Notes: generated by a model from the letters alone, not told the origin. A DNA stretch of 64,000 bases from Pseudovirgaria hyperparasitica (GCA_010093815.1 ML996571.1); one strand, 5' to 3'. Positions 19,332 to 34,475 are shown, numbered from the stretch's first letter. Numbers and translations: made by a program.

Positions 19332-20039
19332 TAATTACCTAGTCTTTTCAGTCTCAGTGCCAGTGCCAGTGCCCCCCAGCAGGAAGCCTTTGCCCACCTA
19401 ATACCGCCGCCCACTCCCAGCTTTGCCTCTCTCTTCAGAAGAGCTTCCATGCTCACCCCTTCACACAAGCCTACCACCACACACAAATACCTCTATCCCG
19501 CCCCATGGTTTGATGGATGAATCCCCACTCGCCTTTTCGCTCTTGCTGTCTTCATCTGCTGCCCACTTCCATCGCTTTCCGACTCTCCACTCTACACAAG
19601 TCTTTTCCTCGACCTTATAACAATAACAACATCCGCAACACCGTCACACCGTCACACATCCTCTTAGCCTTTCACCCTCTACCTCTCCAACCGCCGCCTC
19701 CACAGACGCTCCGTACTTTGGATGGCGGATCTGCTGCGCATCGATCCCAGACCTCCTCCCAGATTTCGTGGTTACACGGGCTCTGATATTCACGTCATCA
19801 GGCATTCTTCCTCGACCGCTCTCGACTCGGAATATCACTCAACCAGCTCACTGCAAAGAGCATAGCACGAGTACTTCCGACTAACAACCCCGTTGACACA
19901 CGCTACACCTGTATTTATCCGTCCGTGTCTGCTCGCCAAGCCTGTGTGGACGTTGTGTCGCCGAGGACCGCTACACCGCTTTCGCTGATCACATTCGCGA
20001 CGCATCCATTCTTACAGGCCAAGACACCAAGACATAGCT

Positions 20040-22154
20040 ATGTCGACTGCACAATTTGAACTGCGCTCCGCCCCTAGCCCGGCACATCTCGCTGATGTGC
20101 CCGGCCTGGCTCATCCCACAAATCATACCTCCTCCGGCCCGCCTGCATACAATCGCAACAAGCCTGTACCTATACCTGAAGAAGAGGAGAACAACGATAC
20201 AAGTAGTGAACCCCTTGAGCCTCTCACTCCTACAGAGTTCCAGTTTGGACATACTTTCAAACCTCAGAGCTCACATCATAACGGTGCAGTACACTCCTCC
20301 GCGAATGCCGTTCCATCACCGAAAGCCTTCTACGACTCAGAGCCTCGTCCACGGCCTACTCCGAGATCAACAAATCTGTCCGAAATGTCGCAGACCTCGG
20401 TCGAATCTGCACCCGTCGCGAAGAATGGCATTGGCAAAGTGTTTGGCTCTGTTCGCAACAAGCTGATCCGCTCGAGATCGAGCAAGGCCGACCTCAGCCA
20501 ACTGCCAACAGTCAATACCAACATACCCCGAACAACGGTTACTCCTGCCAGCGCTGTCATTCCACGTAGACTGGGTGCCTGGCCCGCGAAAGAGTCACCG
20601 CGCACATCAGCCACTAATTCTCCACCTTCTCCTAGCTCACCCGCCAACAATCATGACCATGATCCGATGGGCGATATCCGGAACCAACTAGACTCTCAGA
20701 AGCAAGTCAACAACAAGCCGAGTTCCGATCAGAAATACAAGTCCTCAAACTCTCTTACCCGCCTCCAGTCTGCAACAGACACACGTCCGAATAAGAGTAA
20801 GACTTTCGCGTTTGGGAAGAATAAGAGACCAGAAAGACAACGTTCAGCTAGCACAGAGAGCATTCCAAAGCAGAGCCATGACTCCGATGAGCCTCCCGTT
20901 CCTCTTTTTGGTACTTTTTCGAAACACGCTGCTGAGGGTACTGGAATGAAGGCACGACGCTTGAGTACAAGCTTGCCGGATGAGTTTAACGTGGACTACT
21001 GCGAGCTGGACACTGAGTTCAAGAGAGCGAGCCTACTCCCAGGAAAGCGTGGAAAGCGACTTGGTGTTGGCGCTACTGCAGAAGTCCGGATTATGCAAAA
21101 GAAGGGATACTCGGAGGATCTCGTTGCAGTGAAAGAATACAGACTTCGAGATAGAACCGAGAACGAGGACGAATATTTGAAGAAGATCAAGTCCGAGTTC
21201 AGTATCGCCAAGGCGTTGAATCATCCAAACATCGTCACCACGGTACGCCTTTGTACCCACGGTAAACCAGCTCGTTGGAATCACGTTATGGAATTCTGTA
21301 ACCATGGCGAGTTATATGCCTTGGTTGAGCGTGGCTTGTTCAAGACGCATTATTCGCAAGGAGACCGCCTATGTTTCTTCAAGCAGATTTGCAGAGCTGT
21401 CGACTATCTCCATAGTCATGGCATTGCCCATCGCGATATCAAATTGGAGAACATACTGATGGACAAGAATGGAGGGTTGAAACTCTCCGATTTTGGAGTG
21501 TCGGAAGTTTTCTGCGGTGAGCATCCGGGTCTACGTGCTTCTGGTGGACAGTGTGGAAAGAACATGGGGGAAGTACGGTTGTGTCACCCAGGCCTCTGCG
21601 GTAGCCTCCCCTATGTCTCTCCAGAGGTCTTGAGGAAAGATGTCGAATATGACCCTCGACTCCTGGATGTTTGGTCTACTGCTATTGTCTTTGTCACCAT
21701 GACCTTTGGAGGGTCTCCGTGGCAATCTGCGACAGAAGTAGATCAATATTACGTGCGCTTCGAAGCTGGATGGGAGGCATGGCTCAAAGAACACCCTGAT
21801 GGCATCATCAGAAATGTCTTGGACTCATCTCCTCTGGTTGGTCCGCTTTTCAGGCGAATCGAACCGCCTACTATGCGCAAGACGATCCTCCAGATGCTAC
21901 ATCCAGATCCCTCGAAACGTATCACAATGAAGGAGGTAGTTTCATCGGGCTTTTTCCTGGGACTCGATTGCTGCACACCGGAGAGCTACGAAAATCCCAA
22001 CTGGGGTATGAACGCGGCGGAACGGGGCGCCAGTCGAATGGCACAGCTTGCCACAAGGCAGATTGTAAAGAAGCATCATCACATTCCTCCGAAAGAGGTT
22101 GGTAAATTTTCTAAAGGCATTACACATAGGTTCGACATGGGTGATGGAACTTGA
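20040..22154 (+). CDS. HAL/NPR-family Ser/Thr protein kinase (Ptk2/Hrk1-like), single exon, long low-complexity N-terminus
   Basis: LGVGATAEV, VAVKEY, KKIKSEFSIAKALNHPNIV, HRDIKLEN, DFG, CGSLPYVSPE, YDPRLLDVWS. Confidence 0.9.
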   Translation: MSTAQFELRSAPSPAHLADVPGLAHPTNHTSSGPPAYNRNKPVPIPEEEENNDTSSEPLEPLTPTEFQFGHTFKPQSSHHNGAVHSSANAVPSPKAFYDSEPRPRPTPRSTNLSEMSQTSVESAPVAKNGIGKVFGSVRNKLIRSRSSKADLSQLPTVNTNIPRTTVTPASAVIPRRLGAWPAKESPRTSATNSPPSPSSPANNHDHDPMGDIRNQLDSQKQVNNKPSSDQKYKSSNSLTRLQSATDTRPNKSKTFAFGKNKRPERQRSASTESIPKQSHDSDEPPVPLFGTFSKHAAEGTGMKARRLSTSLPDEFNVDYCELDTEFKRASLLPGKRGKRLGVGATAEVRIMQKKGYSEDLVAVKEYRLRDRTENEDEYLKKIKSEFSIAKALNHPNIVTTVRLCTHGKPARWNHVMEFCNHGELYALVERGLFKTHYSQGDRLCFFKQICRAVDYLHSHGIAHRDIKLENILMDKNGGLKLSDFGVSEVFCGEHPGLRASGGQCGKNMGEVRLCHPGLCGSLPYVSPEVLRKDVEYDPRLLDVWSTAIVFVTMTFGGSPWQSATEVDQYYVRFEAGWEAWLKEHPDGIIRNVLDSSPLVGPLFRRIEPPTMRKTILQMLHPDPSKRITMKEVVSSGFFLGLDCCTPESYENPNWGMNAAERGASRMAQLATRQIVKKHHHIPPKEVGKFSKGITHRFDMGDGT

Positions 22155-25100
22155 TGGGGATTTTGAAGTCTATACCTCGGCGTTTCACGGCTCGGTTGCT
22201 CTACAATACACATTTCCTTCGCACGATCTTACGTTTTCAGCAACATGACCTGTTCGGGTGGAGTTCGAGTACACTAGATTGTATTGGTTTCCCTTTCTTC
22301 CGGGGCGGACTTATTATGTTTGGGGAAAAGGCGCATAAAGGGAAACCTGGGTCGGCGGCTTTTGTGCTACCAAAATTTTGTTCAAACGGGTGATGGTTAG
22401 ATGTCCTCGCAGGAAGATACTCTTGTAACACTGTAACGGTCGATATAATATAATACCCATCACATGTTGCTTCCATATCCACTGGCTCCTGCTTCTGCCC
22501 AGATCCACCCCTTTGATTGGACGTGCCATTATTGATGACTATGACGATCTAGGCTACACGCTTCTTGCCAATCGGGTCCGGCACTTCAGACACATTCACC
22601 TGCATATATACATCACAACTTTAATTACACCAAGGTACATGGTAGCTCAGGCCAGATAAATCAGGCTTTCTTCACGCTTTGGTCATAAATCACGCTACGG
22701 CTTCATTGGGTACGGAGCACCGCGTACAGCGCACACCAGCCCAACAAGGAGAGTCTTGTAGGCGATCCATCCGACGTCCACTGAGTGGGAGACCATGCCG
22801 CCGGCGCGTACCGGTGCTGGGTCAATCGGAGACATCGTAGATGAGATTGGAAGACAATATTATCTTCACAGTCAGAGATTCCAAACATCATAATGTTAGC
22901 TACGTCTTGATGAGACTCGACACGGGCTTTCACCATTCCGCTTATTTAGGCATTATCTGCAGCCAAGCCTTCCGCCAACAGACGCCGAACGTTCTTGGAG
23001 TTCTTGGAACGTCCAGTAATCAATTAGGCTGAGATAATTAGCCTGCGAGTGCTCTTTCAATTCCTTGGAAGGCGTGCACGGCGGGTGATGGTTGGTGGCG
23101 ACACCATCCAGCTTTCCCCTTGTAAAATATCTCTCAAGTCCCTCCATCAACCTCTCAAAACATAGGATGTACGATTCAACGATCTCTGTATCCCGAACCA
23201 CGGCAACTGCAATTCGGCTTGCGCGGATGACGCGGCACTAGATCAGTAGATGACCTAATCTTATCAAGATAAGGATCACGCAGGGCTATTACAGCATCAG
23301 AACGGTCAGCGTGCCGTTCAGCATGCCGAACCCTTTGTACGTTTTGCGATTCACGACGCAGTCACGCAGGGCAGAATCGACATTTCTAAGCCAATCCGTA
23401 GTGCTCTACTAGCTGACAAGCTACAAAGCGGACCTGCCTGATGACACCATAGCTGGACCGCCGTGCAAGCTTGCACGTGCGACGACAAATGTGTGGTCTT
23501 ATGACTCCTGGTCAACATCAAACGTCATTCGTCATTCGTCTCACAGCTCTGATACCTGGAGAGAACTTTGTATTGCATTTGATTTGGCGAGGAGCTTCGA
23601 AAGGATGAATCTGCGGCAGAGTCTTGTTCTTGTCTTACCTGCATTATTGCCGCGCGTCTGGGCATACTTGCATGTAGGCTCTTGTGGGCATCGACTCCCA
23701 ATTAATCACCGCCGTGCATTCGAAGGCATGATGATGCCTCTTGCTGACGTTATTCTTCTCACCAGGCCAGGTAGCAATAGCCGACACCTTCTTTCGAGAA
23801 TGAACGACATGCAGAACACAACTTGACCTACTCGATGGCAATGCTACATGTGCAAAAAATGTCAGATTTTGCGGAAGTTCACACATCCGTCTCATTAGGC
23901 GGAAAAAACAAATGGCTAACAGATGCCCTAATAATATATATCATCTCTGCCAAGACAGCGCCAAGTGACTCTCCGCCTACATACTCGATCGGGCACGTTC
24001 GAAAATTCCCGCTGGACACCGCCGAGGCTCGCAGATTTTCGGTCTTCTTGTCAACTGCAGAAAGTCTCATGAAAAGAGAGTCTAGCAGCCAAGACTTGGG
24101 CTTCTGAGATAGCCAAGAAATAATACATTGTCTTTGCAGGGACAAGCAGGGATGCGGATAAGAAAAAGCGGCCCGAGATCGTGATGATCTTCCCAGTCAG
24201 TCTGTTTCACATGTGGCAATCTGATGCGGATCTGACTTCTTCGTTTTAGCTAGGTCTGGGAAATACCGTATACGCCCGAGGTTTGTGGTAGGGACGACTT
24301 AGCAGCTTCCGGGCCCCTCATATCTTCGTGGAAGCTATTACCGCTTCTAAACGGACAATATCTGCATCGTGAATTGAATGATCAGTGCTTCGTGTGTAGC
24401 ATCTGAAACTGGCTAACTGATATGACGATGATCGAGCCACATAACGGCATCTAGAAGGCCAAGTACGTCCCATTTGGACACGACCGTGTACTCTACCAGA
24501 CTCTGAACCTTCTTCCAGTAAATAACTCACCGTCGTGTGGTGAGGAACAGCATGGCCATTCATAGCCGAAACGAAGCTGGGGGGGGGCACGAACTATACA
24601 ACGATGACAGACCGTAGACTAAGAGAACCTCAACCCTCTATAGGTATATAAGCCGCAATGGTAAGCTCGAAACGTATACTCCGGACCAGTCTATGCACGA
24701 ATCCGGCGTTCCCTCAAATCACACAGAAACTCTTTCGGGCCGCAATTAGAATCCTTCGTCCTAAAACCACCCAAAAATAGTCTACCAGCCTAATCACAAT
24801 CAGAATGATCCATCTACAAGAAGGAAGCAGCTCAACCAAAAAAACGAATAGAGAGCAAGCTAGCTATAAGTAGTACCTCAAATTGCCTCGCGTTGAAACA
24901 ACACCTACATCCATCGCTTTTTCTGCGGTATTTTTTTTTTCTCAAGCGCCCACAACTTGACGCTTTTGCCAAAGACCACAACATTGCTTTAGCTTCCCAA
25001 ACTCCCCGAAAATCCTGAAGGATCAATGTCTGACCTAGGAAAAACCCCTCCCACAGATAGTTCTGGGTATCGTGCACTTCTATGCGGCTTTGAGAAAAAG

Positions 25101-25399
25101 ATCCCAATGTTTTCTTTTTAATTCGCGCAATGAAATCCTACATGTAGAAGAGGTCTTCATCCTTCCTTCCTTCGTTCGTTCAGGAATTTCTGTCACATCA
25201 TTATCATGCTGAACTGCTTTCAGGAGCATAGTCGATGCCAGATCCAGGTTGCTATGATGTGATTGATGTCCAGAACTATTTGAGAGCCTGCGAAATCAAA
25301 CATACTTCTCGTGCGCATGGATCGCAAAAGTTGGCTACTGCCTAACAATGAGTCCTGATTCATTTCATACTGTAAATGCAGCTGAAGCCCGGACATAAG

Positions 25400-25690
25400 A
25401 ATAGGTACTTATTATAGTATATTAAATGTGAAACCCTTAGTAGAAGACTTCTTATAGATAGATGTATGATATATATACTAAGTCGAGTTCTCTAAATAAC
25501 ACTCTAATTGTCTACTATTTAGAGATAGTATAGCTAAGGATAGATTTATATAGAATAAGAGGATCGAAGAATTATTCGTGTATAACAATACTAGTATGAT
25601 CATCTATTAACCACGTTATAGAAATTTCCATAGAGTGTGAAAGAGTAAAGAGAATACCATTAAGAGTGAAACGGAAAAGTAGAGTTGGGA
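25400..25690. repeat. AT/TpA-rich tract, possible RIP-degraded repeat relic
   Basis: Abrupt GC drop with dense TA dinucleotides (tatagtatattaaat, tatagatagatgtatatgatatatatacta). Confidence 0.45.
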
Positions 25691-25718
25691 AGACGCAAGA
25701 ACAAAATGCAAAATGTAA

Positions 25719-25800
25719 TGCATGATCCGGGAGTCGAACCCGAGCCATTTGCTTGCGCCACAAGTGGAAGGCAAATATCCTACCGTTGGACCAATCATGC
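25719..25800 (-). tRNA. tRNA-Gly(TCC) with an 11-nt intron (25754-25764)
   Basis: GCATGATTGGTCCAACGGTAGGATATTTGCCT-TCC-A[CTTGTGGCGCA]AGCAAATGGCTCGGGTTCGACTCCCGGATCATGCA: acceptor stem GCATGAT/ATCATGC, anticodon stem TTTGC/GCAAA, T-loop TTCGACT; short T-tracts downstream. Confidence 0.95.
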
Positions 25801-26234
25801 AATGATTTGATGTAAGCCGAGGACTCATGATCATTATATAATGATTACCATTGATTTAGGAAAAGCGTGTGAGGGTGTAATCAGCATTCCGCCCAGCATT
25901 CTACTAGAAGCTGGTGAAGTCTTATAGATAGTAATTCAAGTACTGCTCCTCTAGGCATGTTTGACTAAGAAACGTAATCCATATCATGGATAACTTGTTC
26001 ATGGCCTTGGAAAAAGCCCAAGCATAGGAAATGTGGATCGAATCATAGGGCCTTAAAGTAAGGTAAGTATCTAGCAAGATCTTCTCTTCGAAGTATCTGA
26101 AACAATCAGCACAAGATTGACATGCTCTCTAGCTGTCTTCCTCTAGTGACACGGACCTCTATAGATGATGTATAGAGAAGAGAAATGGGTTACAGATAGG
26201 AAGTCCATCAATCAATGCGACGTAAAGTATATTG

Positions 26235-26276
26235 ACGTCCATCCCTAGGTTATGGGACGCACCCCGTTATGGGACA
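26235..26276 (+). repeat. Left terminal inverted repeat
   Basis: ACGTCCATCCCTAGGTTATGGGACGCACCCCGTTATGGGACA. Confidence 0.9.
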
Positions 26277-27110
26277 GACTGCAGGTACTTTGAGATTGAG
26301 CGACTCTAACCCTCTGAGCGCATTAGATTAATCTACATCCTTCTATTAATAGTTTCTTTACCTACTATAGACTGCACGTACCCTTAGAGATACAAAAATT
26401 ACAACGTTGTTGACGCCTGCCTACCTGATGCAGTAGAGCCTTCTCTTATGCCGGGATTGAGGCCTACGCTGTACAGCGCTGCATTAGCCTCGAAAACCTC
26501 TTAAATTGACAGACTGGCTTTAACTAGACCTTAGAATGTTACTTTAGGAGCGAGAAGTCACTATTAGCCTTGTGGCCATCGTCGCGCGCTTGTTTATGCG
26601 TGGTTGCCACCCTGGTCAGTACTTAAGACGGAGGCAGCTCGGAGCGCTCTCGACCCCGCACTTGAATAGGATTAGCGTGTAATCTATCCCGGGGTTCGAA
26701 AGCACGTGTTTGTGGCTGTGCGGAATCATGGCTATGCTGACAAATCTTTGCCGGTGCCCACAGTCATGTGACCGATCGACAAGCGTATGTTTAGCTGAAA
26801 ATTGCTTAGAGTGGGTTGATAAAAGAATGCAGCAACTTGATGCTATATAGTGTAAGAATGAAGGGAGCTGGGCCGTATTCTAAAACGCTTAGCTATCATT
26901 GTCATGATCCCAGTTCAAGTCGGCAAGTCATCCCGTGACGGCACATATGTGGCGATTGAGAGAGGTATGGAAACGATAAGCAGCGAGCTAGACCGTGATA
27001 GCCCTGGTACATGCATAGGTGAGCTGCGGGGCAAGCAAGTCTAAGTTACTTAAGCTGAGCTCCTGCTGTCCAACCAAGGCTTTTCTGCCACGCTTCTACG
27101 CCTTTTCACC

Positions 27111-27412
27111 ATGTGTCGGTATACTACAGCCGATATCAACTATTCCCAGTGTCGATTACCAGCTCAACATAAGATCGTGAAACGTCTTCACAAGAGATGT
27201 GAAGCTTCTCCGAAGCCAGGACCAAGATGTGAGAGCTCCACGTATGATCCGGCTCTTGGCACAAACCTACCTTCAAACCGAAACGCTCCATGCAGGTTTT
27301 GTCGAGATTCAGGCATAGTCGTACAGGTGCAATATGAAGATGTCAGTTATATTATATGCATCGTCTACATGAAACCATCTGACTGTACAAATAGCATGAC
27401 CTTCATGGTTGA
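27111..27412 (+). CDS. Small Cys/His-rich putative Zn-binding protein, 82 aa, transposon cargo; exons 27111-27341, 27395-27412
   Basis: CACC-ATG context; MCRY...C...H...C...C...CRFC pattern; intron GTCAGT..CTGAC..TAG (53 nt) gives the ending YEDHDLHG*. Confidence 0.65.
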
Positions 27413-27509
27413 GGAACCAGCCTGGAAGGAGAGTGTCGATGGGATACAATGGATACCATGTCATGCATTGTACTTATAAATATCTCCTAGCCAGCATATC
27501 TCTAAGCAC

Positions 27510-28316
27510 TCAACAAATCCTCAATGACCTTAAAGCATTAAAGAAAACCGCTTTCACCCTCCCGTAGCCAGAGTTTACTTTCCTAGTAGCCAGCAAGCTA
27601 GCTCGGAGTTCTTGAAGAACTTCATCCATAGTATCGAAAGTACCATTCCAACAATCCTGCATCAATTTACCCAACAGTATATTTTCGACTTCTGGAAATT
27701 GATTCTCAGCATATAGCTTTTTGACACGGATCATTCGATCCTCAAAAGGAAAAAGCTCGTCGTATGGTTGTCTGCCCGTTATAACTTCGTATATCGCGCA
27801 GCCAAATGCGAAGATATCGGTCTTCCGGCTAATTCTCGGGGTAGATTCCTTATAACTAAACCACTCATAGCAGGCTCCTGCATCTTCCCCATCAATGCTA
27901 CTGCCTTCGAAGTCTATAATCTTTAGGCGGTCCTGAACTATAATCCAATTATTACATCCAATGTCAGCATGAAGAATGCCATTGTTGTGCATGTATCGCG
28001 TTCCCTCTGCAGCATCGTGTAGCCAGCGAACTTTTGTATGTAACGGGATCAGGTTCGCTCCGCTTCCTTGAATCACTGTCCGAACGGTTCTACCACGTTC
28101 AAGAATAAGGCCGTCGTGCGTTGCACCTAAGTATCTTACAATATTTCCATGTAGTCCCAGACGTTCGAGTGCTCGACGCTCAATGTCGATTCCCTCTCCG
28201 TGGAACTCCTTCAATATTCTTTCCTCATCGATCGCGTATATGACTCCTGATCCACCGGCTGCAAGGAATTTAAGACTTCCATAGTCTATAGCCTGGTCTT
28301 GCATGTGCTCCTCCAT
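27510..28316 (-). CDS. Small stand-alone protein kinase-like protein (TKL-like, non-RD), intronless, transposon cargo
   Basis: LAAGGSGVIY (Gly loop), RILK, helix-C Glu (IERRAL), HGNIVRYLG, HADIGCNN, IIDFEG, TDIFAFGCAIYEVITGRQPY, LMQDCW. Confidence 0.88.
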   Translation of the reverse strand: MEEHMQDQAIDYGSLKFLAAGGSGVIYAIDEERILKEFHGEGIDIERRALERLGLHGNIVRYLGATHDGLILERGRTVRTVIQGSGANLIPLHTKVRWLHDAAEGTRYMHNNGILHADIGCNNWIIVQDRLKIIDFEGSSIDGEDAGACYEWFSYKESTPRISRKTDIFAFGCAIYEVITGRQPYDELFPFEDRMIRVKKLYAENQFPEVENILLGKLMQDCWNGTFDTMDEVLQELRASLLATRKVNSGYGRVKAVFFNALRSLRIC

Positions 28317-28888
28317 GTTCCGAAGGTCGTGATCTCATGCTTCTCGGGCATGAGATAGGAAGCGCGTAGGTTCTATCGTGCGAGGTGCGTTAGGCAAGGA
28401 TTGTGATCGAGGGAGCCGGCTCGTCAACGCTTCGGGGTTTGCGAACTTAGAGCTGTATCGCGTGAAGGGGTAGGATCGCTTCGGACAGTGGGATGCAGGC
28501 GAAACGATAGGAGAGCCGCTTTCGTCTTTCGAGCAATACAATAGGCAGGAGTAATCGTTTTGCGGGTTAAGTGGCCTCGTCTTTGTCGCTGTACGTTGTC
28601 GACATGGATTGCGATGGTTGTTGATCGAGTTATATACTGGTGCGCGACGTGTCGGCAGCGCACTTTTGGAGGCTGACTTAGCCCAAGTTGTCGCGCCATG
28701 GCGTATCGCATTATCTCGGGATTTCTTCGGTGATTTGGGCAGTTTTTGATTGAATATCTGTAGTAGGGATAGCGCCAAACACCTGTTACCAACGAAGCTG
28801 TAAGCAATGGCACCGACACATCTTGAAGTAATTGGTCATCAGTCTAAACAGCATGTTCAGTTCTAAACGCTTAGCAAGACGCATCCTC

Positions 28889-30672
28889 CTAATACATTTT
28901 TGCAACCGGCGCCATCCATAGCACTCCTGCGGCTTCTGCTGCCTGAACATCGCTCACTCTTGCGACTTTTCGCTTTGGCACAGATTGTTTAGCCCCAACA
29001 TCGAGTGAGTTCGCCTCGCCTTCCAGCGCAGTACTCTTGCGCTTCCTACCACGGTTTATCGTACTTGCAGACGTCGTGGCTTCTGCCGCGTCCTGTGTAG
29101 CCTTTTTAGACTTCCGAGAAAGTCTTGCCTTAACCTTAGCCTCATTAGCAGCGTCCTCTTCGGCACGCTTTAACCGTTTTTCTTGGAGATGCTCATAAGT
29201 AAACACCGTCCCAGACCCCTGTTCTAGTATAATTGCCTTAGTCGATCTGCGGGGTTTAGCTTCGTTATTGATCGTCGTCAAAAGTTGAATGCGGTTTTGC
29301 TGAAGAGCATTCTTCGTCAAGGATAATCGGGCAGCTTTGGCGAATTTTAACAGGTGTCGTTCTAGACTCTGCTTGCTTGTTTCGTCAAGAGTATGAGCAT
29401 CCCTCTTCAGAATCAGATCTTGCAGCGACGTGAGGCCCTCTGCTGACACTGGTGTCACAGGCGTTTGCAGTACTGCATCTTGCTGACAAGGTGCTTCGTT
29501 GATTATCGATACAGTCAGTTCAGTCGCTGGTCTCGGCACAGTCCTAAGTACTCGCTCTGGGTTGAATGGAAACAAACCACTTGCAGTATAACCAGCCTTG
29601 ATGTTCTTCGGCGTGAACGCTCGCTCCCTCGCAGGCTTGTATAAAGAGGTAAAATGCTCCTTGCCAGTAGTATTGACACCTCCTCGCTCAATCGTTCCAC
29701 CTGGTCGCGGTACGCCGCCTTTAACGGGGCGAATACAGCAACGTCGCAAGGCTGAAGCTTGTGGGATGTATGGGAGGGGAGACGACATAAGATGATGTTA
29801 TTTGCGAAACAATACTCTAAGATCTCAAGAGTCTCATGCGTCCCAAAGCCGTCAAGAATTAATACGCGGGGTCTCCCGTTAGCACGTTCTTTAGTCTCAG
29901 GATCAAATACTCGCTTAAACCACTGCAAGCTAATGTTGGAGTCGGTATATCCAGATTCATTGCACGCATATTGCCACCCGGGAGTAGGAAAGACTGTCCA
30001 GTTGCTTCGATGGGTGGTAGCCGGCCAAATAATCATAGGGTTCAGATACCTACCGTCAGCGCTAATACACTCGACAGCCGTAACCATTGTTCGCTTCACG
30101 CGCGCGCCTCTATAAGTCCGTGTATCATCCTTACCTACGAGGACTTTTACAGAGCCTAGCATCGATAGCATGACCCCAGTCTCGTCCATGTTATAGAAAT
30201 TCTCTGCTAGGATGGCGGGATCACCTAAAACCCTACCTATCACCTCGAACCAGTGTATCATCTTTCCACCGATATTCCTGTCGTGGCGGTTCCAGTCTAG
30301 CGCCGTGACGCGTCTGGCTGCCGTTTCTGGGTTGCGCTTCTCAAAAGCCTTTGCCCAGTTCTTACTCGGAGGCTTGAGGGGCCTGTCTGCCGGGGGTCGC
30401 GCGCGGGTGGCTACGAAGGCGAGGGAGGGAATGTACTTGATTCGTACAGGCTGTCCGAGATCTGACATCTGTAAGATGAACTTCACGAGGGCACTCTCTT
30501 CCCACGGTGTTAGGTACTGCTGGCTTTGGGCCTTGTCCTGCATCGAGGGTCCATTATGCGCGCGACGATGGAGGGTACTTCGAGCGACTCCGCTGTGGTC
30601 TGCTAGAGCACGGTACGATCTAGGCACACCGGGAGGAACTCCTCGTGCTAATGCTCGCCTTGCCTTATCCAT
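28889..30672 (-). pseudogene. pogo/Fot1-family transposase (HTH + CENP-B-type HTH + DDE_1), split by one frameshift near 29689
   Basis: SYRALADHSGVARSTL HTH, LTPWEESALVKFI, NMDETG, LILDGFGTH, LPSHTSHKLQPCDVAVF; frame moves from RDQVERL to ERGGVNTTGKEHF; restoring one G gives ~594 aa. Confidence 0.9.
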
Positions 30673-31221
30673 GATAAGTTAGTAACAGTCTATAGGGCGA
30701 ATGCTGTCCGCTCGCCTGAAGGCATCGTGAGGCATTGTAGCCACAAAGGACACATTCCAGACCCGAGAGACCCGTGGCATGCGCCACACTTATTTCTGGA
30801 CATTGGAGATAGGCATAGCGCGATAATTTAATACGGATCATGTAAGCAGCTTAATATGGCTAGTGTATTTTGTTGTAGCGGGGGACTATTCTGCGCATTC
30901 TTATCTCTTGAACGGACCTCCCGGCATCAACGCTCCTAGTGTCAAAGTAGCTTCCAGCACCGGGAAATATACCTTTAGTACTTTTACTTCCTTTCAAGAC
31001 CTCCGAATGACTAACAGAGTCACAAATTCGCAAATAGACAGGGGTGAACCAGCGAGGGATCAACTAATAGCCTTCAGAAAAAGATCAACAACATAAGCAC
31101 CGTTGCAGAAATCCTGTTCGGAGTCTAGCTTCTGAAGGAACAATAGCTACAGATTCGTATACGCTAACTACAACTCTATAAACTTATAATGGAGATGTTC
31201 CGGACCTCCGAATTGCAAAAG

Positions 31222-31263
31222 TGTCCCACCTCAGGGTGCGTCCCATGACCTAGGGATTGACGT
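31222..31263 (-). repeat. Right terminal inverted repeat
   Basis: Reverse complement ACGTCAATCCCTAGGTCATGGGACGCACCCTGAGGTGGGACA. Confidence 0.9.
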
Positions 31264-31743
31264 TGGATCGTTGTTGCTTGAAACCGCGCACAGGCCATAA
31301 TGAGCGACGCGTTACCACAAATATTCCTTCGCGAGTATCTCAATTGACCAGTCCAAGGGTGTGAGCTTTACATGTTGAGCGATTCGAGCGATGGAAATTT
31401 ACAAACGGTATGCTGAACATGGCGGGCAAGCACGTCAAGCACCACAGGTTTCGTCAATGTTTCCGCGTTGTATGCGTTCATTGTTATCCTACACATTATG
31501 GTATTACCGCTATCGTGCCATTAAAACTCCAAGGCACCCACGGCCTTTCAATCAAACACCTCTGATGTAAAACCACTAGATCGTAAGTATGGTGATGTGC
31601 ATAGATCATGTATTGTGGTGAAATAGAAGTTGATCCGAGACATCAATCGCACAAACTAGACTCATGAATGGCGTATTCACGCGGTTTGAAGCTGCGTGAT
31701 TCAAACGCTCCGTTACATTCTCCATTAGCTCTGTGGCCCACCG

Positions 31744-32366
31744 CTAGACCTGGCTCATTGACGGAGCCCCACGGCGGATACCTCCAATACCACCACGCAT
31801 ATTAACGTTACCGCCACCACCCATGATGGATAGAACAGTAGTAGCAGCGAACGTGGCAAATCCGAACCAAAGGAAGGCGGTGGATGCCTGCGCCTCACGA
31901 CAACGCTTCATATGTGGGCCACCGTTCGTCACGACGTTGGTGCTTGCGTAGCCCTAGAAACCTGTTAGTGTCACATGCGCCTGAGTGTTGTGAGTTGAGT
32001 ATTACCTCATTGCTGCAGCTGTGGGCGCCGAGGTAGGCAGCCGTAGCAATACCGCCGATAAGCCAGAATAATGTATTGAGGCCATCTAGAGCCATGGTAA
32101 CGATTGGAATGGCCATGCCATCCTTGATGGAGGTTGGTATAAGGTAGATCAGAGACAGCATACCGAAAACGGCAACAAACATGTCGTAGTTGATGATGCT
32201 AGGATTGCCGGCGTACGCATCGTGGATAATGTTACCAATGAGAGATATGAGCAGGAGAGTCCATAGGAACTGTTTGCACAGTGTCAGCTATTTGGCGCTT
32301 TGTTGTGGTTAGCCGCAGTTAGGTAAATACCTGGAGGGCTCGTAGGCCAGTTTGGACGACAGACAT
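31744..32366 (-). CDS. NCE102: Nce102-like MARVEL tetraspan eisosome protein; exons 32366-32331, 32269-32006, 31953-31744
   Basis: MSVVQTGLRALQ-FLWTLLLISLIGNII...GNPSIINYDMFVAVF...LGAHSCSNE-GY...TNGG...RCREAQASTAFLWFGF...PSMSQV. Confidence 0.92.
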
Positions 32367-34475
32367 GATCGGGTTGAGTGAGAGGATAAACGTTTAGCGG
32401 TAGGAGTGATGGTGATGATAGTATAGCGCGACGGTACGTGGAGGTGGTGCGTGCAGGAGGTATGGAGGAGGAAGATTGTTGGTTTATGTAGTGTGGTGAA
32501 AGAAAGAGAGCGAAACAATGATCCATGACGGATGGGCGCGGCGAGTGAGCAGTGACGTCGTGCAGACCAGCTCAAGCTCGGCGGGTGGATGTGGCAGATC
32601 AGGGCCTGTGCAGAAGCTTTTTCGTCTTTGACCCCGGGCAACGCCCTCCCGAGCGCATCAGGCCATTCCCTTTCACACTATAGATTTCACCCATTAACGC
32701 GTAGTGACGCATCATCATCATTATTGCGACCAGAAAGGCAGTCTGATCTCGTAGCGGGCTCGTCATAATGTCTTCTAGACCAACCTTATATACCCATAAT
32801 TTCGCCTGATAGTTCCTATTGCACGTCCGTACCTTCGAGAGACATGAAACCAGCCGACAGACTAGATCGGAGCACGATGCGTGCGGAATGTACTCGGCGG
32901 CATGTACTCGGCGGCAGATCCTACTTTGTCCCTGCTGGTGTATTCCTAGGCACAGGTCGCATTCGCATGCCTCAGACTCCCTGCAGCTGCAGCTGCAACT
33001 TCAACGATGCGCGTTCCTGGAGACGGATTGGAGACAAACCTATTTGCGTATCACGCTCTGTCGGCATTCTTCGGTCAAGCATAAGAAGAACAAGGCACGT
33101 GATACAACCACTCTCGTCGACCGAGTCAGCGACTAAGCGGGGCTTTCGAAAGCTTGGTCAGCTGAAAAGATGAGTCTTGATGAGATGCGCACTTGAGGAA
33201 TCGAAACAAAAACCCCAGCTTTATCCAGTTCTTACCGTAATCGAAATGAGGCACCTCGACAGAACCCATCTGCTCGAGCATAGCTGTCGCTCAGTTTGCC
33301 AAACACGACGGTATCCCAACTTTGCTGTTCTTACTACATGCTGGAGTCCTCTTACGTGCCTGAAGAGGTTTGGCGCCAGTGTCGGTGCTGGTGCCGGTGT
33401 CGTGGTCCGGACTCCGGGGTCTCTTGACATCCTCTTGAAATCCATTTATCTGTGGGGCTGACGACCTGTTATGCGCCTTCTCCTTATGGACACCTGGTTC
33501 TTGTACCTGGCGAATGCTGATAAACTTATAGTGCTCCAAACATATAAGAAGTCGTCGTATGCCCTCAGTGTGTAGGGTTCCTGCAATCTTCGGACGGGAC
33601 TGTAACAAAAATGAGACAGTGCGGCTATCTACAAGGTCTTCCGAGTTCTCTTAGATTTGTCTCCTGGATTTTCCCCGAATCACCTCAAAGCACACTGCTC
33701 AGCGGTTTACATTACTTCTCCTCCTGCCCAGTGTATAGGCCATCTTGCCTGGGACTGGCTTTACAAAGTCGGTGTAGAGCACTCAACGGAAACTACTTCG
33801 GCTTAATTGCATTAACAGTGATAGTGGTAGGGCTGTAGTCTTGTACATAGAATGAACTGTCATCATTGACGATCCGCCTGTGCTCTGGTACTGCTCCTGA
33901 AGTTCTGCTGACTTGCTTTGCTTAGAGCCACCTGCTACCATGGATGATCTAAGGTTCCTTCTACACCCAAGCTAGACCCAATGTAGACACCGCATCCCAG
34001 CTGTGCTCCGCGAGAGGGGCGGTGCAAGATTAAAGTCATCGTCGCATTTATGACTACGGCTTACTTATGACTGGACTTCGTCCGCTGCCTGGACACCTGG
34101 TTATCTTTTCTATTCTACCTCACATTATCGTGCACTTGACCAAAGCTTGGGCTTCAGACTCCTCAAGTCTTGCAATATACCTGGACACTCCTCTTCGAGC
34201 GTCTCATCAGCTTTGAGTAAAAAAAGCCGTACCCAACGTTACCTCTATTGCTCAATCGACGGAGGACGACGTTTCTCATACCAAAAGGTATAGTCCTCCA
34301 GGTTCACTGTACGCTTCAGACTCGTCTTGAAGCTCCAATTACATGAATTGGAATCACTTTTGGTGTTTCCATCGAACCTGTTCTTACGAATCACCAGAAC
34401 GTCCCACACCAACGATACGAAATCTTGCTAGAACTTTGTTCACTCGGTAATCAAATAAAAACAAACAATCACGAC

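Follow-up and report, generated by a model that had tools for sequence, protein, structure and literature searches.

In plant-associated ascomycetes, few DNA transposons are as common as pogo elements, and the named Fot1, Tan1 and Pot2 elements measure about 2-2.5 kb. Starships, which are tens to hundreds of kb long, are moved by a tyrosine recombinase, and hAT elements, which belong to a different superfamily, generate 8-nt duplications. In this study, a stretch of 64,000 nt from the Pleosporales fungus Pseudovirgaria hyperparasitica (GCA_010093815.1 ML996571.1; hereafter the window) was found to contain a 5029-nt unit at 26235-31263 in which a transposase gene, a kinase gene and a small six-cysteine gene lie between one pair of terminal inverted repeats (TIRs). 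Judged from its transposase, the unit is a Fot1/Tan1-type pogo element of the Tc1/mariner superfamily. We give an even chance to its being a gene-capture (transduplication) variant, now immobile, of a pogo family whose members are normally 2.4-2.5 kb long. If such a unit moves, pogo elements of the ordinary 2-kb type join Starships and a few hAT elements as vehicles of whole working genes, and genes duplicated or transferred in this way would easily escape notice.

Like Fot1, Tan1 and Pot2, the unit encodes a transposase of the DDE_1 type, about 580-590 aa long, and has TIRs of about 40 nt with a repeated motif; a related copy is flanked by TA. However, it differs from them in its length, its two extra complete genes, its TG flanks and its frameshifted transposase gene. 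As a candidate cargo-carrying mobile element of Pezizomycotina it resembles the Starships, whereas its size and its DDE transposase set it apart from them. No Starship tyrosine-recombinase captain was detected by Pfam in 29 of the 66 window open reading frame (ORF) pieces of at least 120 aa, and the ORFs of the element matched DDE_1 and Pkinase only. Pack-MULE and other Pack-type elements of plants likewise hold host DNA between TIRs, but they are for the most part non-autonomous, contain pieces of genes and occur in many copies, whereas two whole transcribed genes accompany the element's own transposase gene here. Pack-type capture is thought to happen during repair, according to work cited in PMC3538342.

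A Tc1/Mariner element of Pyrenophora tritici-repentis is described by Manning et al. 2013 (PMC3538342) as having an ORF sequestered between its TIRs. Like the unit reported here, it occurs in Pleosporales and combines a transcribed non-transposon ORF with a transposase between TIRs; its cargo encodes osmosensory-transporter coiled-coil domains, and the element is present in 46 copies, in contrast to one copy of a kinase and a Cys-rich gene in the window. The same paper reports a 5.6-kb hAT element of P. tritici-repentis that carries a histone H3-like gene (PMC3538342). This hAT transduplication and ToxhAT, both from this group of fungi, are also small to mid-sized and hold whole genes between TIRs; no hAT domain was found in the present element by Pfam. 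An earlier interpretation of the window made from the DNA alone (the sequence-only reading) had confined the well-described fungal cargo carriers to Starships and a few hAT elements, a list made incomplete by the Tc1/Mariner case (PMC3538342). Otherwise, a literature search of limited coverage returned Starships alone as fungal cargo carriers, and no pogo/Fot1 element with a kinase. Transduplication by fungal DNA transposons is already known; what draws attention here is the complete, transcribed two-gene kinase module as cargo, and within it the overlooked small partner gene.

Anatomy of the element and its transposase family

The TIR arms are 42 nt long each, are complementary at 36 of 42 positions (86%) and, with a spacer of 4945 nt, form the sole such pair in the window. 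A 30-nt TIR pattern allowing up to three mismatches matched two sites in the 64 kb, both of them the TIRs, while two matches were obtained in 0 of 100 shuffled sequences. A 16-nt TIR core was likewise confined to the two arms within the window. Each arm contains a short direct repeat in two copies; the TIRs bound by transposases often carry a repeated motif. The sequence-only reading had described a 42-bp imperfect TIR pair bounding 5029 bp and enclosing a DDE_1 transposase, an intact 268-aa kinase ORF and a spliced 82-aa Cys/His gene convergent with the kinase. All of these were borne out, and the transposase frameshift, the missing TA duplication and the apparent single copy were newly added. 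That reading had also singled out a nearer TIR in related copies as contrary evidence; within the present element, the best match in a search for internal TIR remnants scored 18, less than the average of 19.5 for shuffled sequence, and thus none exceeded chance. No second copy or other repeat of element parts was found within the window.

The transposase ORF at 29515-30672 (minus strand) matched DDE_1 (PF03184) with an E-value of 1.1e-32 and 113 bits, compared with a cut-off of 22. The pogo/Fot1 group is marked by an N-terminal CENP-B-type helix-turn-helix DNA-binding domain. At E ≤ 0.01, DDE_1 was the sole Pfam family found in the window ORF; PF03221 is present in some homologues. Three full-length homologues of 581-590 aa were colinear with the whole window gene, which opens with an ATG at 30672 and closes with a stop codon at 28889, and they ended with the same final residues. 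The two halves of the window gene lie in different frames that meet at 29689-29692 (about 29690), and this one frameshift is the sole lesion. Because the lesion is single, the match runs from start to stop, and the N-terminal part is 85-87% identical to these homologues, only recent decay of the transposase gene is indicated; since the gene is frameshifted, this copy would be unable to move on its own. Among 8000 scored candidates, 1722 homologues were found at E ≤ 0.001, and the best of the matches listed reached 87% identity over the comparable part and 91% over a shorter part; P0134 and P0143 are 88-91% identical. One homologue carries the source name "transposase tan1", and others are labelled "HTH CENPB-type". 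A scan of viral contigs with the transposase gave no match.

The distance from the right TIR to the transposase stop codon is 2375 nt, and the longest contig measured 2415-2538 nt in ten homologue clusters; the 3′ TIR is therefore expected just behind the stop codon as a rule. The sizes of the homologues' contigs thus suggest a normal length of about 2.4-2.5 kb for this family. In the window, about 2.6 kb of extra DNA separates the stop codon from the left (distal) TIR, which therefore lies that much further out than the family expectation.

A scan of prokaryote genomes with the transposase yielded five loci, three of which (L021-L023) were matches of 17-28 residues and were ignored. The remaining two, L019 and L020, come from the bin of an uncultured actinomycete and from an assembly of Lapillicoccus. 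They encode pogo transposases 76-79% identical to that of the window, and evidently represent fungal DNA that was filed with prokaryotes. L019 is a decayed related copy (76% protein identity) with a TIR-like sequence 620 nt upstream of its ATG, compared with 591 nt here, which has the same first five bases as the window TIR and is preceded by TA. Because its spacing from the ATG and its sequence resemble those of L019, the right TIR stands at the position of the family's 5′ end. No 3′ TIR was recognisable in L019, which hence gives no canonical element size.

The kinase and small-gene cargo

The 268-aa kinase matched Pkinase (7e-14) and PK_Tyr_Ser-Thr (1.4e-13) and is identical to an entry (P0260) in the public protein collection. 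Its profile matched the kinase domains of TAK1, ZAK, ASK1 and B-Raf with E-values of 1e-15 to 1e-11, and K36, E46, D118, N123 and D135 (the catalytic Lys, Glu, Asp and Asn and the metal-binding Asp) were invariant in 18 aligned kinases. The protein is thus a TKL-like stand-alone kinase domain and is probably active. Its relatives begin 12 codons further upstream; in the window the corresponding start codon stands in another frame, and translation would open at the next Met. A 95-aa ORF at 28424-28711 had no Pfam match. The closest kinases of Parastagonospora nodorum and P. tritici-repentis (P0003, P0016 and P0256) lie on short contigs under several accessions each: the P. nodorum kinase was present on 26 contigs, the longest of 19 kb, and the P. 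tritici-repentis kinase, in a 200-aa form, on contigs of at most 14 kb. Such contigs could represent repeat-associated or accessory DNA.

The small gene consists of two exons joined across a GT..AG intron and ends with a stop codon at 27410-27412, about 100 nt from that of the convergent kinase gene. In the predicted 82-aa protein, which also contains one His, six Cys and a Ser-Pro-Lys-Pro stretch are conserved; its ORF matched no Pfam family. A word-based protein search returned one annotated homologue, from Plenodomus lingam, which is 85% identical and whose C-terminus agrees with the splice. A profile search gave 46 representative clusters at E ≤ 0.001 with sizes of 52-229 aa, and because all clusters fall within this range, none of these homologues is fused to a kinase. 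Structure prediction of the small protein gave a mean predicted local distance difference test score (pLDDT) of 69, a middling value, and the predicted fold had no match in the PDB at E ≤ 0.001. A predicted complex of kinase and small protein scored 0.19 against a mark of 0.34, which speaks neither for nor against binding. Our best guess, held with low confidence, is that the kinase either phosphorylates this putatively metal-binding protein or is regulated by it.

The distribution of the pair was examined in 18 metagenome loci obtained by a kinase-profile scan, whose kinases are 46-65% identical to that of the window, the 84-91% identical relatives being outside this set. By tblastn, a small-gene homologue adjoined the kinase in 11 of the 18 loci at E ≤ 1e-3 and in 12 (L002, L003, L005-L012, L014 and L018) at E ≤ 1e-2, one of the 12 with an in-frame stop. 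Three of the six loci lacking a small-gene match are too short to judge, and the set includes near-duplicates (L002/L014/L018 and L015/L016). Nine loci show the convergent arrangement of the window, and in three the small gene lies upstream of the kinase on the same strand. Retention of the linkage in two orientations therefore suggests that the kinase and the small protein work together. Among 43 ORFs scanned around these kinases, the neighbours included Nop14, ORC3, a REV3-type polymerase, Slu7 and argininosuccinate synthase; in L008, one retroelement lies 5 kb from the kinase. The cargo is an ordinary host-type chromosomal gene pair elsewhere in fungi. It reveals a conserved two-gene module, present in many ascomycete contigs, whose small gene is almost always left unannotated by gene callers.

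Four runs cover the locus, two of DNA (X1 and X2) and two transcript-like ones from a second sample (X3 and X4). Contigs of X3 and X4 skip ten short stretches bounded by GT..AG or CT..AC and otherwise agree with the window at every base; because the skipped stretches are intron-like, these runs were taken as transcript assemblies. Their contigs span the kinase gene, and contigs of two runs skip the small-gene intron and so confirm it on the plus strand. Both cargo genes are transcribed. Minus-strand introns with CT..AC ends were seen at 26314-26365 or 26333-26381 and at 26469-26529, within a stretch (26277-27110) that has no ATG ORF over 51 aa and is probably a long kinase 3′ UTR (untranslated region) or a non-coding RNA.

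Possible capture, juxtaposition and spread

A transposase-kinase junction also occurs in a second species. P0257, a 571-aa P. tritici-repentis gene model from a 146,870-nt contig, belongs to the 90% cluster of a kinase fragment from that species and was the sole protein among 274 compared that matched both the transposase and the kinase. Its residues 2-154 map to window positions 30303-29845, in the DDE part of the transposase, with 80% identity; residues 161-296 map to 28508-28110, covering non-coding kinase upstream sequence and the kinase N-terminus; and residues 282-403 map to 27932-27567 in the kinase with 90% identity. The C-terminal tail is unrelated to the window, and the catalytic-loop region of the kinase has been lost. 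Because transposase and kinase follow each other in P0257 as they do in the window, on one strand and with some of the spacer retained, the linkage is not private to the P. hyperparasitica genome, and because it holds the same junction in decayed form, the capture would be older than the window copy. The composite lineage may also have stayed active for some time, since the window transposase frame is almost intact despite 20% divergence between the two transposases.

In the transduplication account, the transposase would bind the repeated motif in both TIRs and cut and paste the DNA between them, and the kinase pair would travel along with the TIR-bounded element. The pair might have been captured by gap repair or template switching after excision, or the proximal TIR might have been lost and a more distant TIR used instead. 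The sequence-only reading had proposed a small cargo-mobilising pogo element; the TIR-enclosed genes, the spacing of the 5′ TIR and the P0257 junction stand in favour of that proposal.

A number of observations weigh against it. The frameshift leaves the present copy with a broken transposase, and its close transposase relatives are apparently canonical in size. The flanking dinucleotides are TG on both sides, so that the TA target-site duplication of the pogo/Fot1 group is lacking. In favour of insertion, the TG/TG pair is a 2-nt direct repeat of the length that pogo insertion makes, and would arise by chance once in 16 cases; non-TA insertion, however, is documented as a rare event only, and for another Tc1/mariner element, Sleeping Beauty (PMC5801840). 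Both X1 and X2 cover 23500-34000 with one unbroken DNA contig and no differences; given that contigs usually break at repeats, the element is probably unique in its genome, though these contigs are possibly the window's own source. The related transposases of L019 and L020 have no kinase next to them, and no transposase was found in any of the 18 kinase loci (tblastn, E ≤ 1e-3), which makes cargo carriage an exception in both gene families. The sequence-only reading had looked to kinase homologues lying repeatedly beside pogo transposases, an expectation to which the metagenome loci gave nothing and P. tritici-repentis one model. P0257 itself is known as a protein model alone and may bridge an unknown distance. 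Its transposase part is 80.4% identical to that of the window, which ranks fourth of 138 by score, while the best other member reaches 83.7%. Since other family members stand as close to it as the window does, a single composite origin is no more than possible. Finally, transcripts cross both element borders, as would be equally expected of a resident locus.

Several of these points fit an explanation that is possible, though in our judgement short of probable, in which genes were juxtaposed without capture. The kinase and small gene would then be a resident host pair, the adjacent pogo element would have lost its proximal end, the left TIR would be a remnant of a second copy or the product of a rearrangement, and the 5-kb unit would never have moved as a whole. 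The widespread occurrence of the host module, without the transposase, agrees with this, as do the apparently unique copy and the missing TA duplication. Transcripts on the kinase strand pass the left TIR and reach about 26171, while on the opposite side contigs of the adjacent MARVEL-domain gene extend from positions above 31955 across the right TIR as far as about 30915. The closest kinase identities also roughly follow taxonomy at a coarse level (79-91% in Pleosporineae and 68% in Westerdykella). However, juxtaposition requires two insertions and two precise losses, whereas the element has no internal TIR trace, correctly inverted outer TIRs and identical 2-nt flanks. The near-intact transposase frame and the junction in the 20%-diverged P. 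tritici-repentis copy fit an active lineage better than an old relic. Moreover, when the 920 window ORF pieces of at least 40 aa were compared with the 18 loci, none other than the pair matched at E ≤ 1e-6, and there is hence no sign of a fixed ancestral locus.

A stronger form of the capture account holds that a pogo lineage stayed transposition-competent while carrying an expressed TKL-like kinase and six-Cys module, and spread it among Pleosporales. We regard this as rather unlikely. Its candidate hosts would be P. hyperparasitica, P. tritici-repentis and perhaps P. nodorum, with its short accessory-like contigs, and if true it would parallel, on the small scale of a DDE transposon, the transfer of cargo by Starships. 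The suggestion in the sequence-only reading of a family that spreads a kinase module found no support, the related kinase loci being devoid of the transposase. Pairwise kinase identities form a star-like cluster at 82-91%, in which the two Pyrenophora kinases are 82% identical and those of P. seminiperda and P. nodorum 86%. These values hint at incongruence; given the internal deletion in the P. tritici-repentis copy, no conclusion was drawn. Kinase and transposase homologues had no contig size in common among the 120 matches listed for each.

Repeated independent insertion of the pogo family beside the kinase gene in different fungi, as at a preferred target, is very unlikely. The transposase part of P0257 not being closest to that of the window and the great abundance of the family would suit such insertions. 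Nevertheless, the order, the strand and the non-coding kinase upstream stretch are the same in both species, and none of the 18 other kinase loci shows an insertion of this kind. A chance inverted repeat or a mis-assembly is refuted as far as the data go, as the TIR pair was not reproduced by shuffling, DNA contigs of two runs (possibly the source data) span the whole stretch, and second-sample transcript-like contigs bridge both borders, in each case with no differences.

Feature positions and surroundings

Table 1 Features of the 5029-nt element and its borders, in window coordinates.
Feature	Position	Strand	Basis
Left flanking dinucleotide, TG	26233-26234	.	Sequence
Left (distal, 3′-side) TIR	26235-26276	+	Inverted-repeat and pattern searches
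Non-coding stretch with minus-strand spliced transcripts; includes the upstream region of the small gene	26277-27110	-	Contig joints, ORF check
Small six-Cys gene, 82 aa	27111-27412 (exon 1 27111-27341, intron 27342-27394, exon 2 27395-27412)	+	Splice-confirmed, homologues
Stand-alone TKL-like protein kinase, 268 aa	27510-28316	-	Pfam, alignment, transcript-like contigs
Kinase upstream region; from about 28508 to the kinase start common to the P. tritici-repentis fused model	28317-28888	-	P0257 mapping
DDE_1 transposase gene of the Fot1/Tan1 pogo type; full length, with a single frameshift (about 29689-29692)	28889-30672	-	Pfam, homologue alignment
Transposase 5′ region; overlapped by the MARVEL-gene transcript 3′ end to about 30915	30673-31221	-	Contigs; L019 spacing
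Right (5′-side) TIR	31222-31263	-	Inverted-repeat search; L019 comparison
Right flanking dinucleotide, TG	31264-31265	.	Sequence

The region around the element (Table 1) is core DNA rich in genes. Two host genes converge here, the left one ending near 25382 and the right one being the MARVEL-domain gene on the minus strand; the element occupies the spacer between them and is entangled in their transcription. Directly to the left of the element, positions 25000-25999 are AT-rich (GC content of 0.37-0.40, compared with 0.45-0.54 around) and have no similarity to it. A larger, unrelated kinase gene (Pkinase, E 2e-48) is located 5 kb to the left at 19989-22151 and is unlike the cargo kinase at E ≤ 1e-5. 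In the transposase region, low-depth contigs with plus-strand GT..AG introns (29391-29460 and about 30612-30695) represent spliced antisense transcripts. The MARVEL gene has introns near 31953-32004 and 32270-32330, and its transcript extends about 830 nt past the stop codon, about 350 nt of this inside the element, so the insertion seems to have supplied the gene's present 3′ end.

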